64,000 nt of DNA from Lama glama (lineage: Eukaryota), in contig CM052816.1 of assembly GCA_028534125.1 (NCBI GenBank), forward strand, positions 15,254,001 to 15,318,000, written 5' to 3'. Below, one piece after another: positions 2,536-13,207 of this stretch. Both the position numbers and the translations under genes were made by a program. The notes beneath the pieces are model-generated. The model did no database searches, was not told the DNA's origin, and saw only the letters and a list, made by a program, of their open reading frames with translations. Position 1 is the first letter of the stretch. The number at the start of each line of letters is the position of its first letter.

Positions 2536-2629
2536 GTTGCAGAGTAACCCTCCTTAGAAGGGATGAAGTTAGAATTGAACTTCTTACCTATTTAAGCCAT
2601 GTTTGCTTTATCTTGCTTTACCTTTTCAG

Positions 2630-2832
2630 TCCCCACCTCTGAGACTTCTCCTGGAGCTCCCCCAGTGGGACCTCCACCTCCTTCAAATAAGGCTTCCAGG
2701 CCACCACTTGTGGGGAGTTCTCTCTCCAGCACACAGCCCACAAATTTCCCAGTTGTTGAGTCTGAGACTCTGCTGGAGGATGTGCTGACACCTTTGGAAC
2801 AGGCATTGGAGGATTGCCGTGGCCACACAAAG
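2630..2832 (+). CDS. SRA1: SRA1 (steroid receptor RNA activator protein, SRAP) internal coding exon
   Basis: ttttcag acceptor and AAG|gtaagt donor. Encodes (V)[25 protein letters not shown]...[19 protein letters not shown], recognisable as the SRAP proline-rich region. Confidence 0.93.
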
Positions 2833-3507
2833 GTAAGTGGGAAAGCTCTGATGACCACCAGGTGCAGGTATGGCTCCCAAAAGTACACTTTCTGACCCTA
2901 TGGGCAATGGCTCTTAACCCTTTCTGAGTTAGGGACCCCTTCAGAATCTAAGGACTTCCTAGAAAAATGAACACATGGTTTGGCAGGGTTCACAGTCTTC
3001 AGTAGAAGAGGCTTGTAGGAACAAGAGTTGAATTTAACTCCCATTAGCAATAACTTCCTCGTTTTTGTACCCTCTAGGTCATTTAGAGCAAATCTTGCTG
3101 ATTTTATGTTCAGGGAGGGAGAGGGAGACTCCCTTTTTCTATCTATAATGTTTCCTAAGTTCTCTTGAGGCAAGGGATCTGAGGAGTCTTAAAGGACAGT
3201 AACAGAGTGATCTTCACCTCTTTGGTCCTTAGTTTACTTATTTGTAAAGTAGCACTTTAGAATGAATTTCTGAGCATCTGAGAAACTAGAAATTTTAAAA
3301 TTCTAGCCACATGTGCATTTTTCTTGGAAGGAGATCCATAGATTTCATCAGCGTCTCAGTGGGGCCTCTAATCTTTGAAGAACCATAACTCTAAGACTGA
3401 GTGTAAAGTTCTTGGGCCAGAGAAAGCAGGTGCTTCCTATGTGGCACTGCCTTCCCTGCCTCTGTTAGGCTGGCAGCATTGACTTGGAGGGGGCTTCTGT
3501 CTCTCAG

Positions 3508-3616
3508 AAGCAGGTATGTGATGACATCAGCCGACGCCTGGCTCTGCTGCAGGAACAGTGGGCTGGAGGGAAGCTGTCAATGCCTGTAAAGAAGAGGATG
3601 GCTCTGCTTGTACAAG
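3508..3616 (+). CDS. SRA1: SRA1 penultimate coding exon
   Basis: ctctcag acceptor and G|gtgtgg donor. Encodes [36 protein letters not shown]; phase 0 in, phase 1 out, consistent with the neighbouring exons. Confidence 0.93.
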
Positions 3617-3765
3617 GTGTGGCTGGGTCCCTTTGTATAGCCTAAGTCCCTCATCTTGCTGTGGCTGGCCAAGCTGAAATAGGTGCTGAGATTTTTGACT
3701 GGGAGGGGAGGAGTAGCAGCTACGTCTTGCTTCAGGCTGCTTGCTCAGCCCCTCTCTCTCCTCAG

Positions 3766-3977
3766 AGCTTTCAAGCCACCAGTGGGATGCAGCAGATGAC
3801 ATCCACCGCTCACTCATGGTTGACCATGTTACTGAGGTCAGTCAATGGATGGTGGGAGTTAAAAGATTAATTGCAGAAAAGAGGATTCTGTCTTCAGAGG
3901 AGGAGGCCAATGAAGAGAAATCTACAGCCACAGCTGAGCAGAACCAGACTGTACCAGGCATCCAGCAGGCTCCATAA
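3766..3977 (+). CDS. SRA1: SRA1 last coding exon
   Basis: ctcctcag acceptor. Encodes (E)[39 protein letters not shown]...GIQQAP; stop TAA at 3975-3977. Confidence 0.95.
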
Positions 3978-5457: not shown

Positions 5458-5486
5458 TTAGATGTCCATTTCAAATTGTGCATCAT
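5458..5486 (-). CDS. EIF4EBP3: EIF4EBP3 exon 3 (coding part)
   Basis: ttttttctctccag acceptor. Encodes (D)DAQFEMDI-TAA, which ends in the TOS motif FEMDI. Confidence 0.95.
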
Positions 5487-5636
5487 CTGGAGAGAAAAAA
5501 GGCAGAAGGACTGGTTGCTGGGTTGGGGGTCTGCAGGCTCAGTCTCAGTGCAGAAGCCTCTCAGAACTGAATCCCCACTCTACTTAGGCATTTGGACTCA
5601 AAGCCATTTCATAATTTTAGGGCCTGCTTTCCTTAC

Positions 5637-5810
5637 CGGGTATCTCTTCCGCTGTCTCCTTTTGCTCCTTCAGCTCCTCCAGCTTGGAAGGTGGGGCTGT
5701 TGGAGGAGTTGTGACCCCGGGAATCTGAGGGAGGCAGCAGGGGGGTGTCCGGGCAATGGGTGAGTTCTTGCACTCCAGCAGGAACTTTCGGTCGTAGATG
5801 ATCCTGGTGC
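5637..5810 (-). CDS. EIF4EBP3: EIF4EBP3 exon 2 (dual-coding; also read in a second frame in ANKHD1-EIF4EBP3)
   Basis: cttgacag acceptor and G|gtaagg donor; 174 nt. Encodes (G)[36 protein letters not shown]...EEIP with the eIF4E-binding motif YDRKFLL. Confidence 0.96.
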
Positions 5811-6859
5811 CTGTCAAGGGGTAAGGGCTATGTAAGAGGCAGGAGCTTGTGTCTCCAGACACAGGTTTTTTAGGGACCAAGAGGTCACATTTTCTCGTGC
5901 TTTAAAGGGCTACTGCTGTACAGCCCAGCCAGAATCTCAGCTGACTAGCCTTCACAGCAGACTTCTGGGCCTAACCGAGAGGCGTCTAAGTGTCAAAAGT
6001 AGCATCCCAGCTGGTCTAGGCAGGGGCTTTTGGGTGAGGGGAGCTTCAGGTTTTGGCTCTAGGAAGAGCAGTGGACTTGGATCTCAGGTACTTCAGGATG
6101 CTCTTGTCCTGCTCTGCTGGCTCTGGAACTTCATTGCTTTGGTTCACAGGGTGGGGCTTAGCCCTCCAGCCTCAGTTGGATGAGGAAGCCAAAAAGCAGA
6201 TGTGAAGGCTAGTCCTGCCACCTGGGCTCTGATGGCCTGCTGGGAGGAGCTGTGTTCCTCCTGTGGAACACAGGGACATACTGTTCTTTTCCTGACCCCT
6301 CCTAAGTCCTAACAGGCTCAGCCCAGCCTCGAAGAACTTGGCCCGAATTGTCCTCAAATGACCCTACCCTATTCTCACCCCACCACTTCCCCTCCACTTG
6401 GCAGGAATCCCTGGGTAGGCACGATCCCAGGCTGTTCGACCAATCAGCCACTAGCAAGCCACGCAGCACAGATACCTGAAACCCTTGGTTCCCAACTGCC
6501 ATAGTCCTGCTCTGGCAGCTTTGCAGGACCTCGTTGCTTCCTGCTGAGACCACACTCAGTTGAGGCCTTGACCTACCTCCCAGGCGGCAAAATCAGGAGT
6601 AGGGGGTGAGCAAGGTGCCCAGAAGCCAGGCCACAGTGAGAATTTATGTACAGTGTCACCAGAAAGTAGGCTCAAGACCGTCTTGCATCACTTCGAGGTT
6701 TTATGGAACTGGGCTTTAGCTCCAAGCCCCCACCTTACTCAAAGCTGCAATCTGCTGAGGGGCCTGCAGACTAGTCCAGGTCCGCACCTGCCTACCCAAG
6801 TCCCGCGACAGACACGCTGGCCTGCCTGCCGCCAGTTGACCCCAGCCCAGCCCGCTGAC

Positions 6860-6962
6860 CTCCCGGGGTAGTGGCGTATAGCGTGCCCCCCGGCGTGATG
6901 CTGTAGCAGTCGGGCAGCTGGTCCCTGCCCCCGGGAATCGGGCAGCTCGTGGATGTGGACAT
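6860..6962 (-). CDS. EIF4EBP3: EIF4EBP3 exon 1 (coding part)
   Basis: ATG at 6962-6960. Encodes [34 protein letters not shown]; donor G|gtcagc. The three exons sum to 306 nt (101 aa plus stop). Confidence 0.95.
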
Positions 6963-7029
6963 AGCGAACAGGAGAAGCAGAAGACAAGAGGTTGGTGCTG
7001 GTGCTGAGGACGCGGAAAGCAGCCGACCG

Positions 7030-7240
7030 ACTCAGTCGACCACGTGCGGCAGCAGCAACACAAGGACTACGTCACGCCCGGGGCGGGCCAGCTGTCACTC
7101 AACCAGATGATCCCGCCCTATCCGCGCTAGAGCAAGCACGGAGCTCTGCGAAAAGTTGGAAGGAGTCCCAGGACCTGCACCGACCTCCTGTTTCCTGGCC
7201 CAACATTGGCCAGCCTGCCTGTGAGCGCTGCAGCCGCTCA
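7030..7240 (-). promoter_or_regulatory. CpG-rich EIF4EBP3 promoter
   Basis: Locally high CpG density. E-box CACGTG at 7041-7046, CRE-like TGACGTA (minus) at 7068-7074, GC box GGGCGG near 7081, CCAAT (minus) at 7205-7209. Confidence 0.7.
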
Positions 7241-7289
7241 GCTGTTTACTATTTACTGTTTACAGGGGGCGCTGGGTCAGGTGAGGTAT

Positions 7290-7490
7290 GGCACACATTA
7301 CTGTCATGTATTAATTCACCCATTCCTCTCAACAGTTTCGGACAGTTAAGCACTATTAAGCCACATTTTACAGGCGAGGACACCAAAGCCCAGAGAGGTT
7401 AACACGATTCAACGTCATGCACTTGTAGAAGGGGGAATTTGAGTGTATCTGATTGCAGAGCCTGTGTCCTTAAGCACAGATGTGTACTGC
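7290..7490 (-). mobile_element. MIR SINE
   Basis: cattttacaggcgaggacaccaaagcccagagaggttaa resembles the MIR core. Confidence 0.6.
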
Positions 7491-8039
7491 CTCCCATTAA
7501 TCAATTACAGTACAGGGTGAAAAATGCCTTGATGCACAGCACCAAGGGGAAGATGAGAGGGAGGGTGGGCTTTCCGGAAGAAGTGATACCTGGACTGATT
7601 AAAGGATGAATAAAGACTGGGGAGCAGGAGATGCCTGATCTCTTTGCCATAGCTAACTAATCCCAGGAAACTTAAGGAAAAGCTGGCTGGGGGCTGATGA
7701 GGAGGGCTTGGTCTTTAGCCTTCTGGAAAGAGAGAGTACGAGGTCAGAGAGAGTATGGCCTTTAAAAGAAGATTTTTTGATGTAGGCACACTAATGTGAA
7801 AGGAGGCAGGAGAGAGGTGATGGTAAGTATCAAGTCTAGTACCTATATACACTAAAAATCTCAACTTGATCCAGTTGTCCGATGTTTTTAGCTTCCTCAA
7901 AATCAGTATACCCCTACCAAAACCCCATCCTGCAAATTAATTATAGACCACCTGACCGTGCATTTATCAGTGTTACTTCTGGCTTCATCAAATTTTCTGA
8001 TTTTTTCACTCATTAAAAGATACTGTATTTTACAAGTAA

Positions 8040-8205
8040 AAGCGCTTCTCAAACTTTAATGTGCACATAAGTCACCTGGAGACCTTGTTAAAATGAGGAT
8101 TCTAATACAGTAGGTGGGACTTGAGATTCCGGGTTTTTAATAAAATCCCACGTGATGCAGACCCTTAGGTCTGCAGGTCCTTAGAATCACACTTCAAATA
8201 GCAAG
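8040..8205. mobile_element. MER5-like hAT-Charlie DNA transposon relic
   Basis: cttctcaaactttaatgtgcacataagtcacctggagaccttgttaaaatgaggattct...cacacttcaaatagca. Confidence 0.65.
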
Positions 8206-9898
8206 GATATGTATATTTTATTGTTCCAAAAAGGCTTCTGAGCTACTTACAAAGCAGTGTAAGCCCAAGGATCAGATTGTGAGGAACCATTTATACTCAA
8301 CTTTTAAGCAGGGTGAGTAAGCAGTCTAGTGAGGGGAGTTGGGGATGGGATGGACAACAGTGAGACTGAAGGTGAAGACTCTAGCCTAGTGAAATGGGGT
8401 GGGCAAAAAGTGGCTGTGAGGATGAAGAGAAGTGAAGGGGATCTAGATACACAGAGAAGGAAGGATAAGGTGACTGATTAAGGGTGGGGTGAGAGAGGAG
8501 ATAAGCTAGGATAATTCCTGATCTTCTGAGTTGACAGTCTTGGTAGCTAGGAGTCCCGTGTGATATAACAGAGAAAACAAGAGGTGGGGTATATCTTATA
8601 TTGGGGGATGTATCATGTGTGTGGAACGCTCAGATGGAGAAGCATTGTAAGGAATCAGATATACAGGTCTGAAACTACAAAGGAAGAACTCTGAGCTTGA
8701 TTCAGATTTGTGGAGTGAAATCCAAGAGCGTGGGATGAGATCATGGCGGGAGAAGATACACCAAAAGAAGAGACCTGGAAACATCAACATTTATTTAAGG
8801 GGTTGCAGAGGAAGAGGATTTCACCAAAAGAGACTGAGAAAGAAGAGCCAGAGTAGAACTAGGAGAGAAGTGTCAGATGTTTTCAAGAAGGATCAGTTTG
8901 GAAGTGAGATCTCCCTTTTATTAATCTCTACTGTAAAACAGCAGCAGCAGTTACTACTACTAAAAGACTACTACTAGAAGCTTACTTTTCTTGAGATGCT
9001 GTGTGCTATACGGGCTGGGGAACTAGAGAACAGGTAGTTGGCTTTAGGGAGAAAGCCAGATTCATCATCTATTCAACCTGGATGAAGGACCAAGAGTTTA
9101 AATCTGAGGGTCGCTCAACACTGATTGCCCATTAGAGATTAGAGTATGAGAGCTTTAAAAATAAATTCTTATGCCCAGGTCTCAACCCCAGAGATTTGAT
9201 TAGACTTATAGGGGAATACCAGGTCTCTGCTACTAGGCAAATTACTTTGAACTCACAACAATACCATCAAGATAGAACAGGAGGAGGTGAAAAGTAATCA
9301 CAAAATAGGTTTGCAATCTGACCATTAGATTCATGACTTTGTTTTCCAAATTAGGTCAAGCCCAGGCTCCTGCCTTTTATTGGAGGTGGTCTTAACACAC
9401 TGTAAGTTTTGGATATTTAAAACCACCTTTCTCTCACCCATTTCCTACAAGAGAGCGTGAAACTAAAGTAACCTGTCAAATAACATTGACAAATGGTGAC
9501 AAATCTTTGAGGGTGAATAGAAAATGCAGTGTTATCAGAGCCCCTCACCCTAGGACAGTGTCAACAGTAAGATGTCATGACCAGCCACACTTCTTGGTAG
9601 AAGAGCTCTACGGCTAAAGAACAAGATGTTCAGAATCTGTTTTCCTACAGGCTTGTTTGTCTCTTCCTGGGTTTACAATGTGGTACAAAGGTTTTAATCA
9701 GTAGGACAGAACCATGTATACTAAGTACTCCTCTCTCTTTGGCTTGAAACTCTAATATGATCAGCCTTTCCTCTTCTAAAAGCTACGTCAAACCAAGGAT
9801 GGTCCCCTCATTTACTAATTTTGAGGTTGGGAAGAGGATTTGGTCAGAATCTGTAAGAACAAATGGAAGCTATAGTTCTAAGTCCTGAGATTTCTTAC

Positions 9899-10008
9899 CT
9901 CTGGTTAGGAGAGGCCACCATTGGCTGTCCAACTCTCTTCTTTGGTCTGGTTAGCTGAGGTGATGAGATTTCCCCTTTGAGAGCAGGGACTGAAGGAAGC
10001 AGACTGGC
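9899..10008 (-). CDS. ANKHD1-EIF4EBP3: Intergenic bridging exon of the ANKHD1-EIF4EBP3 (MASK-BP3) read-through transcript
   Basis: cccttttatag acceptor and AG|gtaaga donor; 110 nt. Open in ANKHD1 phase 0: ASLLPSVPALKGEISSPQLTRPKKRVGQPMVASPNQ(R), matching the recalled human MASK-BP3 tail. Confidence 0.9.
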
Positions 10009-12300
10009 CTATAAAAGGGCAAGTCAGCACACTGTAGCCACAACAGGTTTAAAGGGTCTTAAACATCAATAATTTTGTTGTTGGTGGAAATTTTACACTG
10101 AACACTGCTTGAAATAAGTAGGTCCAGAAACCTTGATGATAGTTTTATTCCTTGAAAGAGCTGTTATTCTCATGAGGTTTGATCTATGCCTAAGCAAGGT
10201 GTTTCTTAATGACTTGAGGACTCACTATGGGTGTGCAAGATTTTCTTCTGCCTCCACTAAAATCCCAAAATCAATAATGGCTCTCACAACAGGCCTTTGA
10301 TTCCATGTGAGAACAAACGGTAGTTCTCAAACCTCAGCAACATGAACCATTCTGTTGGCTTCTAGCATTCCCGTACCATATATACTCCCATATATTCATG
10401 GGACAAAAAAGAAAATCTGTATTAGAACGCTTTTGAGTTCATTTACATTCAATTTCATTTTCAGATGAGGAAAGTGAAGCCCAGAGATGAGAAAATGATT
10501 TGCCTAATGTCATATGGCTTCAAGTGGCAGAAATGAAAATAGAATTTTGCCTTGACTCTTGTTCTGCTGTACCCGTGAGGCCTCCCCCCAAATCCCTTGT
10601 ATGTTTTGAAAGTAATTAAGTTCTTACCTGAGCTAGGTTTAATCCAAGGTTCAGGTTGGTAAAATAGCAGTAAAGTAATGCCAGGAAGAGTCAAGACAGA
10701 GGAAGAAGAGATTATAGCAGGCAAAATGGAATGGGGAATAGGCTACTGGGATCCAAACAGAAAGAAAAGAAAGCATTGCTGCTAAGAGGCCAAGAAGGAG
10801 GGTATCCTAAGTAATTGCTACAAACTGCACAGCTCCTGTTTCCTCCTAATCATCCTTTGAGTTTCTCATAATTGCCTCCTCTCCTTAGAGTTCTAGTTCC
10901 TGACTTGAGATAGAATTTCTCATTCTGTTGTCCTCACGGTGTAGAAGATAGGGTTAAGAACTCCTTCAATAATTCAAATGTATTGTAGATAGTTAAAACA
11001 CAACAGAACTCACCTTTTTGTCCCACTGAATAACTTACTTAATATTATCTCTCACTAGTGAATGTTTCATCAAGAATAGTTTCATTCATTTCACTAATAC
11101 TAGGTGATTTTTTTGTTATTTTTGTTGTTAGTTGTAAGTGGAAACAGCAAGATATGTAGGTGATCCAAGGGGTCTTTTATCCCCCTCAAGGCAAGGGGGT
11201 CTCTTGAGAGTACTTGATGTGGTTATCAAGCACTACAATGGCAATAGTTTCAATACCAGTGATACTTTTCAAATCCACTTAAAATTGAAAATAAATGAGG
11301 TTACAAAAGCACTCTCATATTTAAGATGATATGGAAGACAAACAAACCAGGTATGTCTAACACAGAACAAATATGGTGTTCCTCATTTAGTGTTGGCTCT
11401 AGAAGCCAGGAAGAGAAGACTAAGAACTGTTGGTATGAAAGTAAAAAAGAATGCTTCTAGTATGACTCTGCCTCCAGTTAATATTTTTCTATTCATCTTT
11501 CTTTGACTTGATACATGTTTTGGCTTCTCTATCAGCCTCAAACATTTTGTTTTATTTTTTAGATTGCCTATATCTAAGACCAACCATATTAAAATATGTG
11601 TAAGTTGATGACTGTTCTTTTCAATGGGATAGTTTTTCCTTCTGTAGTGCATCAGATTCTTGGCATAGCCTATAGTTTGGACAAAGCAATCCATTCAGTG
11701 TTCCAGAGTTTAGCCTATTGACCATACCAGCTCTTCATGGAACTAAGCCCAGAATTAGTCATATATTTATAAACATTATTCAGTTGATTCAACAATACAA
11801 CAGAATTACAGGAGTCACTCCCTCCCCCTCATATGTCCCCACCCAAATAAAACTTAAAACACCTATAACCAAAATAAATCTTTAGATAAAGAAAATCAGA
11901 AACACAAAAGGAATCTGACGGATGATCTGGGTATCCTTAAGTTTGTTTGGTGTCATCTGACTGAAATTCTGTTATTCTTATTGACAAGCTTACGATCCAC
12001 AAAGAGCTAAACCTATCAGTGGCCTGTCTGCTAAAGTCAGATAAGACACACTGCAGGGGCTTGAAACTCTCTCACTTATAAAATGATATGGAAGAGAACA
12101 AGGAATGTTTAACACAGAGTAAGTGTACAACTAGTTTTAAAAGTGCTTTTCAAGGCAGTCTAAGAATGGACTCTAAAGTGTAAAATGTGAGAAGTCTATT
12201 ACAAATATAGTATTAACCTGGTTCAATATGATTGTGGATTGGGTAATACCTGTATGACCACTGAAAGGATCACACCCCACTTCTAAACACTGTTCATCTT

Positions 12301-12306
12301 TTTATT
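12301..12306 (-). terminator. Polyadenylation signal of full-length ANKHD1
   Basis: AATAAA on the minus strand about 400 nt after the ANKHD1 stop. Confidence 0.7.
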
Positions 12307-12705
12307 GAATATTCTGGTAAATATTTCACATTAATACAGGCTACATTAAGTAGAGCCACTATATGACAAGAAATTTACTCAACTTTTTCCTTTTAAGTAT
12401 GTAAACAATTGTACATGTATTTACCACCCTAAAAGGTTGAAACATGTAATCATCTAATTCTCTTCTGCATACAAGTAGCATTCTGTATGTTTAGCCCAAA
12501 GCACTAAATTCAAAATGGCTAAACTAACCAGAGAACATAATCAGGTGGATAGGAAATCACTTTGTTCTTATACAATGGGCAATCAAATTTCCATTGTTAA
12601 AGCCTCAGAGAAAATTCCTTAGGCAGATTAAAAAAAAAAAATTCCCCAGGGTTCTTCCAAGGTCAAAGGTTTCTCAAACAAGGCTAAAGAGTAAGACCTT
12701 CTAAC

Positions 12706-12765
12706 TTAGTTGACATATTTGAGATGCATGTTTCCAATATGAGGTGCCCACGTGCCAGGCCAAAT
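12706..12765 (-). CDS. ANKHD1: ANKHD1 terminal coding exon
   Basis: cctcccccttttcag acceptor. Encodes IWPGTWAPHIGNMHLKYVN-TAA. Confidence 0.95.
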   Translation of the reverse strand: MWPGTWAPHIGNMHLKYVN

Positions 12766-13042
12766 CTGAAAAGGGGGAGGAAAAATTGGAATTTCTAATT
12801 AGGAATCTTTAGACATTTATAAAACGAATATATAAATGCAATGGCAATTCACTGTTTCTGCCTAGGAAAAATACACATACATGAAATTAAATGTTAAGTA
12901 GCATCATCTTGATATTGACAAACTTAATTCAGATCAAAGTGGTGAGATGTCATGACTTCTGATATTCAGAACTTGTACTACCCAAAGAATTAAAAGAATG
13001 ACACAATAAATCTGAAAAATAACAGCATTAAGTCCATTTTAC

Positions 13043-13207
13043 CTGCTGAGCATCAGTGCATTCAGTTGAATTTTGAATAACTTTTATCATAGGGTTCCAA
13101 GCAGGATCTGGGTTGTGGAGTCCATTAAACAGAGGGCCTCCCGGAACATCAGCAAGTTGGGGATGGGAGGGTATTATGGTGCCTCCATACATGGAAATTG
13201 GCAGACC
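13043..13207 (-). CDS. ANKHD1: ANKHD1 penultimate exon
   Basis: 165 nt, phase 0-0. Encodes GLPISMYGGTIIPSHPQLADVPGGPLFNGLHNPDPAWNPMIKVIQNSTECTDAQQ; donor gtaaaa. Confidence 0.95.

Follow-up and report, generated by a model that had tools for sequence, protein, structure and literature searches.

A 64,000-nucleotide stretch of the Lama glama genome (NCBI GenBank assembly GCA_028534125.1, contig CM052816.1, positions 15,254,001 to 15,318,000 of the forward strand; hereafter the window) was examined for the ANKHD1-EIF4EBP3 read-through, a fusion in which ANKHD1 is joined to the neighbouring gene for 4E-BP3. With a probability of about 0.9, the locus in the window is an intact orthologue of the known ANKHD1-EIF4EBP3 (MASK-BP3 ARF) read-through. 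In this reading the penultimate coding exon of ANKHD1 would be spliced to an intergenic bridging exon of 110 nucleotides (nt) and from there to exon 2 of EIF4EBP3, which would be translated in a frame other than that of 4E-BP3. The fusion, the bridging exon, and the overlapping frames are already known; they have been in print since 2003, and a human gene symbol exists. All ANKHD1 and EIF4EBP3 features, the bridging exon included, lie on the minus strand, and positions are given in the numbering of the window. The features are listed below, with a slash marking each exon boundary.

13207-13043, minus strand: penultimate coding exon of ANKHD1, 165 nt, orthologue of human exon 33, donor CAGCAG/gtaaaa.
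12765-12706, minus strand: coding part of the normal terminal exon of ANKHD1, with a strong acceptor and 19 codons followed by TAA at 12708-12706.
10008-9899, minus strand: intergenic bridging exon, 110 nt, acceptor ttttatag/GCCAGT, donor CCAGAG/gtaaga.
6962-6860, minus strand: EIF4EBP3 exon 1, ATG at 6962-6960, donor G/gtcagc after 6860; absent from the fusion reading.
5810-5637, minus strand: EIF4EBP3 exon 2, dual-coding, 174 nt, acceptor ttgacag/GCACCA, donor TACCCG/gtaagg.
5486-5458, minus strand: coding part of EIF4EBP3 exon 3, in the 4E-BP3 frame through TAA, with the 3' untranslated region (UTR) after it.
5485-5483, minus strand: stop codon TGA that ends the fusion frame, 1 nt inside EIF4EBP3 exon 3 (exon start at 5486).

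The reading frames of these exons fit together without interruption. Only frame 0 is open in the penultimate exon of ANKHD1, which ends on a complete codon (phase 0) and to which residues 2503-2560 of Camelus dromedarius ANKHD1 isoform X1 (P0046) were aligned by tblastn. The bridging exon holds 36 codons and 2 nt, so that it is entered in phase 0 and left in phase 2; it is open in the incoming frame only, with one stop in each of the other two. Entry into EIF4EBP3 exon 2 in phase 2 gives 59 open residues in a frame one base upstream of that of 4E-BP3, and the remaining third frame contains a stop. In its 4E-BP frame the same exon contains the eIF4E-binding region and matches Pfam family PF05456 (E 2.5e-18). 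The TGA that closes the fusion frame falls within two successive GAT codons of 4E-BP3, the first of them split between exons. The complete tail is 95 amino acids (aa) long, proline- and serine-rich, and of low complexity. The normal terminal exon of ANKHD1 is omitted from the fusion and sits downstream of 13043 as the alternative to it.

Most of this structure had been proposed in a preliminary description made from the letters of the stretch alone, and a multi-exon read-through was thereby correctly reconstructed from raw sequence. The phase-0 end that it placed at 13043 was borne out by a check of splice sites and frames, and the open 110-nt exon at 10008-9899, leaving in phase 2, does have good splice sites. 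Its string of 59 residues was reproduced exactly by phase-2 entry into exon 2, its TGA lies where it was placed, inside GAT GAT and 1 nt into exon 3, and the 36 and 59 residues do sum to the 95-aa tail that it had substituted for the 19-aa ANKHD1 end. It had also called the bridging exon hidden and missed by the open reading frame (ORF) track; the exon is outside that track, but the isoform is already annotated by NCBI in camels and alpaca.

The human/mouse MASK-BP3 ARF read-through is credited in later papers to Poulin, Brueschke and Sonenberg (J Biol Chem 2003, PMID 14557257). The junctions of human MASK-BP3/ANKHD1-EIF4EBP3 (NM_020690) are printed as CAGCAG-GCCAGT_CCAGAG-GCACCA in Table 1 of a 2019 review (PMC6862657), which in its passage on this fusion describes exon 33 joined to an additional intergenic exon of 110 base pairs and to the second exon of EIF4EBP3. 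All four human junction hexamers, and the length of 110 nt, are identical in the window, so the preliminary identification of the locus as the human MASK-BP3 fusion was right. The same passage states that the second EIF4EBP3 exon is used in an alternative frame and that the transcript has no premature stop that would make it a target of nonsense-mediated decay (NMD; PMC6862657). Because the stop in the window also lies in EIF4EBP3 exon 3, escape from NMD is to be expected here, as the preliminary description had supposed. Elsewhere the human overlap is drawn "via an intermediate exon" (PMC2329644), and the human fusion variant is given 36 exons and a protein of 2617 aa (PMC7473474). In the relevant part of another source, the MASK-BP3 overlap is counted among three further mammalian examples for which the two products have been characterised biochemically (PMC1186735); the ANKHD1-EIF4EBP3 overlap is likewise named in PMC5074479. 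At the level of sequence, it is the identity of the junctions with human, together with the data from other species, that establishes the feature as real; openness of the frames alone is insufficient.

To collect relatives of the tail, two protein searches were carried out. The second-frame translation of exon 2, searched among proteins of 101-2000 aa, gave 11 proteins at E <= 0.01 of 20 candidates. A search with the C-terminal 95 residues of a naked mole-rat protein, restricted to proteins of 1047-3332 aa, gave 245 proteins at E <= 0.01 of 384 candidates; 120 of the 245 were listed. Rodents, lagomorphs, primates, carnivores, horse, camelids, hippo, whales, bat, dugong, and elephant are found among the matches listed. 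The named proteins among these 120 listed matches of 245 are all placental, Afrotheria included, and no marsupial, monotreme, or non-mammal was found among the same 120. The tail directly follows the end of the penultimate exon in 123 of the 127 proteins collected, in 40 distinct versions; the 4 without such a tail are P0002, P0007, P0006 (a short dog protein), and P0114. Five Logan-derived proteins (P0001, P0003, P0004, P0009, and P0010) contain the penultimate exon, the bridging exon, and the second-frame tail on contigs of 1.0-5.4 kb. As the genomic span exceeds 7 kb, these sequences would represent spliced transcripts from other animals.

The two halves of the tail are not conserved to the same degree. 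Across the 40 distinct tails of other mammals, 31-36 of the 36 residues of the bridging-exon peptide are the same as in the window (86-100%), and 44-58 of the 59 residues of the second-frame part, with a per-segment identity of 75-100%. When the window and the 40 distinct tails were aligned (41 sequences), 17 of 37 columns were invariant in the bridging exon versus 17 of 60 in the second-frame part. Although no other coding frame overlaps the bridging exon, it is this half that is better conserved. It includes a basic patch, RPKKRVG, of which the R, both K residues, and the G are constant in all 41 aligned sequences, and in Loxodonta it is longer by one in-frame codon. Five distinct tails end one residue earlier than the others.

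Within the camelids, a tail common to 17 Camelus and Vicugna proteins differs from that of the window at 1 of 95 residues (94/95 identical). At this position the window has Ser and camel and alpaca have Arg; the tail codon is AGC at 5655-5653 on the minus strand and spans the 4E-BP3 codons ACA GCG. The change may also alter 4E-BP3, and it may be either a species difference or a polymorphism.

Some shorter proteins came up in the same searches. In P0002 and P0007 (marmot and squirrel), EIF4EBP3 exon 1 runs through an extended donor into the second frame without ANKHD1. A predicted dog protein of 109 aa, labelled 4E-BP3 isoform X1 (P0006), has its start some 120-165 nt before the bridging exon, at a site equivalent to about 10173-10130 on the minus strand of the window; a search of representative proteins with P0006 gave 7 matches. 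As these short predicted proteins reach the tail without ANKHD1, the tail frame might be reached from other starts as well. Three of the 7 matches to P0006 (P0130, P0131, and P0132; 114-194 aa) contain second-frame-like stretches, 42-50% identical, in unrelated sequence and apart from ANKHD1. Spurious ORF prediction over the 4E-BP exon 2 of more distant animals may account for them, and as weak matches of uncertain origin they were rejected as a guide to the age of the overlap.

The most serious alternative is that the fusion is a by-product of read-through, in which leaky termination of ANKHD1 would yield a functionless tail and the second frame would stay open through the constraint on 4E-BP3, which fixes two bases in three, and the GC-rich, T-poor wobble positions of the exon. 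How far composition alone can account for the open frame was gauged by simulation, in which the 4E-BP3 protein encoded by exon 2 was kept fixed and synonymous codons were redrawn (20,000 draws per model). The second frame was open in 0.6% of simulations under the AT-rich codon usage of ANKHD1 and in 3.3% with uniform synonymous codons; nine dicodons of the exon would turn into stops with T at the wobble base. For the bridging exon, a run of 36 open codons in random sequence has a probability of about 0.18 by simple arithmetic.

Several observations weigh against a maintained second frame, the first of them being that the frame was open in 27% of simulations under the local GC-rich wobble composition and in 95% of trials in which synonymous codons were permuted within the exon. 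Significance of the open frames in a single genome, where P reaches 0.27, was therefore rejected as an argument. The second-frame part of the tail varies at 43 of 60 alignment columns, so that constraint on its residues is moderate at most. The species set is itself ascertained, as only species in which a pipeline has annotated the tail can appear; a statement that stops occur nowhere is therefore partly circular, and many of the tail records were predicted automatically and may follow the human model. In the comparison of wobble positions given below, the 4E-BP3 bases were inferred from amino acids and not from DNA, with L, R, and S ambiguous, and the level against which they are set, fourfold-site differences of about 0.25-0.35 between placental orders, is a general background figure and not one computed here. 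Neither the bridging-exon peptide nor the second-frame peptide of exon 2 matched a Pfam family, and the function of the fusion is described as unknown in a review, in its passage on the gene (PMC10454556); both points are in keeping with a by-product.

Other lines of evidence make the by-product explanation unlikely. The bridging exon, in which no second product constrains the sequence, keeps 31-36 of its 36 residues, its phase, and its length (Loxodonta with one codon more) across placental orders. A paralogue control was taken from the same genome: in the equivalent frame of exon 2, EIF4EBP1 has 2 stops although that exon is also GC-rich, EIF4EBP2 has 3, and EIF4EBP3 has 0. In the second-frame part, every tail codon begins with the wobble base of a 4E-BP3 codon, and that base can mostly be read from the tail residue. 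Differences inferred in this way between placental orders amount to 0-0.19 of sites, among species in which the tail is annotated and with bases deduced from proteins, which is under the background level for neutral sites. There were 0 differences at 58 sites between the tail common to Colobus and macaque and that of Equus, 3 at 57 between Loxodonta and the same primate tail, and 4 at 54, with 5 sites ambiguous, between the window and Rattus. If each site differed with a probability of 0.25, a value taken from the background range, 0 of 58 would be expected with P of about 6e-8. The low inferred divergence at wobble positions fits reduced synonymous change in exon 2.

The second frame is thus probably maintained by selection and not accidental, as the tail is annotated across placental orders, the corresponding frames of the paralogues are closed, and the inferred wobble divergence of exon 2 is very low. 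The preliminary description had drawn the same inference from full conservation in this one stretch. Selection finds support in these three observations, but the window is one more placental genome and not an independent proof of it.

A second alternative, in which the 110-nt element owes its conservation to a non-coding role, for instance in the regulation of EIF4EBP3 or as an exon upstream of it, with the ANKHD1-joined coding secondary, can draw on its position some 2.9 kb before the EIF4EBP3 ATG and on the predicted dog protein P0006, which begins upstream of the element and splices through it without ANKHD1, but is highly improbable given that the element stands in frame after the ANKHD1 penultimate exon in those 123 of 127 proteins, that an intermediate exon from ANKHD1 to EIF4EBP3 is described in the sections of the literature on this locus (PMC6862657, PMC2329644), and that 86-100% amino-acid identity with in-frame length variation fits coding constraint.

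If the locus is read as an ANKHD1-EIF4EBP3 fusion, its expression could proceed as follows. Part of the ANKHD1 transcripts would escape cleavage at the ANKHD1 poly(A) sites. In these the donor at 13043 would bypass the last exon (12765) and join the 110-nt exon at 10008-9899, the donor of which would in turn bypass EIF4EBP3 exon 1 and join exon 2 at 5810. Since 110 is not divisible by three, exon 2 would then be translated in a frame shifted one base upstream from that of 4E-BP3, as far as the TGA in the last exon. The resulting protein would be ANKHD1 with its 19-aa end exchanged for the 95-aa tail, and 4E-BP3 would be made solely from its own promoter and exon 1. By homology we infer that these fusion junctions are used in Lama glama.

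The window comes from an assembly of 2.35 Gb in 1.07 million contigs. It contains the 3' two-thirds of ANKHD1, followed head-to-tail on the same strand by EIF4EBP3 and then by the convergent SRA1. By tblastn, residues ~590-2560 of the Camelus dromedarius isoform X1 (2652 aa) were placed on exons from 60742 down to 13043, most of them 94-100% identical, and its last 90 residues were aligned to the bridging exon and EIF4EBP3 exon 2. An apparent insertion of 53 residues in a large ANKHD1 exon was considered as a break in the gene and rejected, as it corresponds to an intron of 159 nt that the tblastn alignment had spanned. On the plus strand, at 2596-3977, three open stretches match Pfam family PF07304 (E 2e-12 to 3e-29) and mark SRA1, which lies tail-to-tail with EIF4EBP3 in what we take to be the gene order of human 5q31.3.

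Downstream of the normal ANKHD1 stop at TAA, the 3' UTR contains AATAAA at 12306 and 11556, ATTAAA at 10643, and AATAAA at 10149. No AATAAA or ATTAAA was found downstream of the EIF4EBP3 stop in a scan of the minus strand of the window over 8060-4000. The sole candidate poly(A) signal in the EIF4EBP3 3' UTR is AGTAAA at 5151-5146, about 310 nt past the 4E-BP3 TAA, a variant that is presumably usable. Also on the minus strand, an E-box CACGTG (7046-7041) and a sequence TGACGTA (7074-7068) resembling a cAMP response element (CRE) precede the EIF4EBP3 ATG by about 80-110 nt. Induction of 4E-BP3 upon mTORC1 inhibition is reportedly driven by a CACGTG-binding factor. The gene is transcriptionally induced upon inhibition of mTORC1, as stated in the pertinent part of PMC4915159. 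In the genome that supplied the paralogues, two EIF4EBP2 exon-2 loci (G000:C55592:298155-301286 and 1149818-1152949) are exact reverse complements over 3.1 kb and lie about 0.85 Mb apart on the same contig; a recent inverted duplication or an artefact of assembly would explain this.

As a discovery the locus carries little weight: it adds one more placental genome to a known fusion, the isoform of which is annotated in camels and alpaca. What is added here is the paralogue control and the comparison of wobble positions, both of which argue for a maintained second frame. Within the tail, the basic patch of the bridging exon is the most testable part. By the consensus rules for nuclear localisation signals, RPKKRVG can be read as a nuclear-import signal, and it could act in this way or as a docking signal. 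It is possible, and we put it forward tentatively, that the tail is a functional module and not a tolerated appendage, that RPKKRVG redirects some of the ANKHD1 scaffold, and that the synonymous sites of 4E-BP3 exon 2 are nearly frozen across placentals because the downstream frame has to stay open and alike.

The closest known system is human/mouse ANKHD1-EIF4EBP3 itself, in which, as in the window, the penultimate exon is followed by a 110-nt intergenic exon and then by exon 2 in the second frame. The two share the junction hexamers, a stop in the last exon, and the order of genes, including the downstream SRA1. They differ in species and in the length of the tail, which is 95 aa in the window and 94 in catarrhines and Aotus, where exon 2 is shorter by one codon. 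The INK4a/ARF case of CDKN2A, named beside ANKHD1-EIF4EBP3 in the passages on overlapping frames in PMC5074479, PMC2329644, and PMC1186735, resembles the locus in the window in that a shared exon is read in two frames into unrelated polypeptides, the choice being made by the upstream exon spliced to it. In CDKN2A, however, there are two first exons and promoters in one locus, whereas in the window the second frame would be entered when transcription of a separate upstream gene reads through and a bridging exon is spliced in. XL-alpha-s/ALEX of GNAS, like ANKHD1-EIF4EBP3, is treated in the corresponding parts of PMC5074479 and PMC1186735 as a mammalian region that codes in two frames and whose products have both been characterised. 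Both GNAS frames are translated from the same mRNA by alternative initiation, without gene fusion or a frame shift made by splicing.

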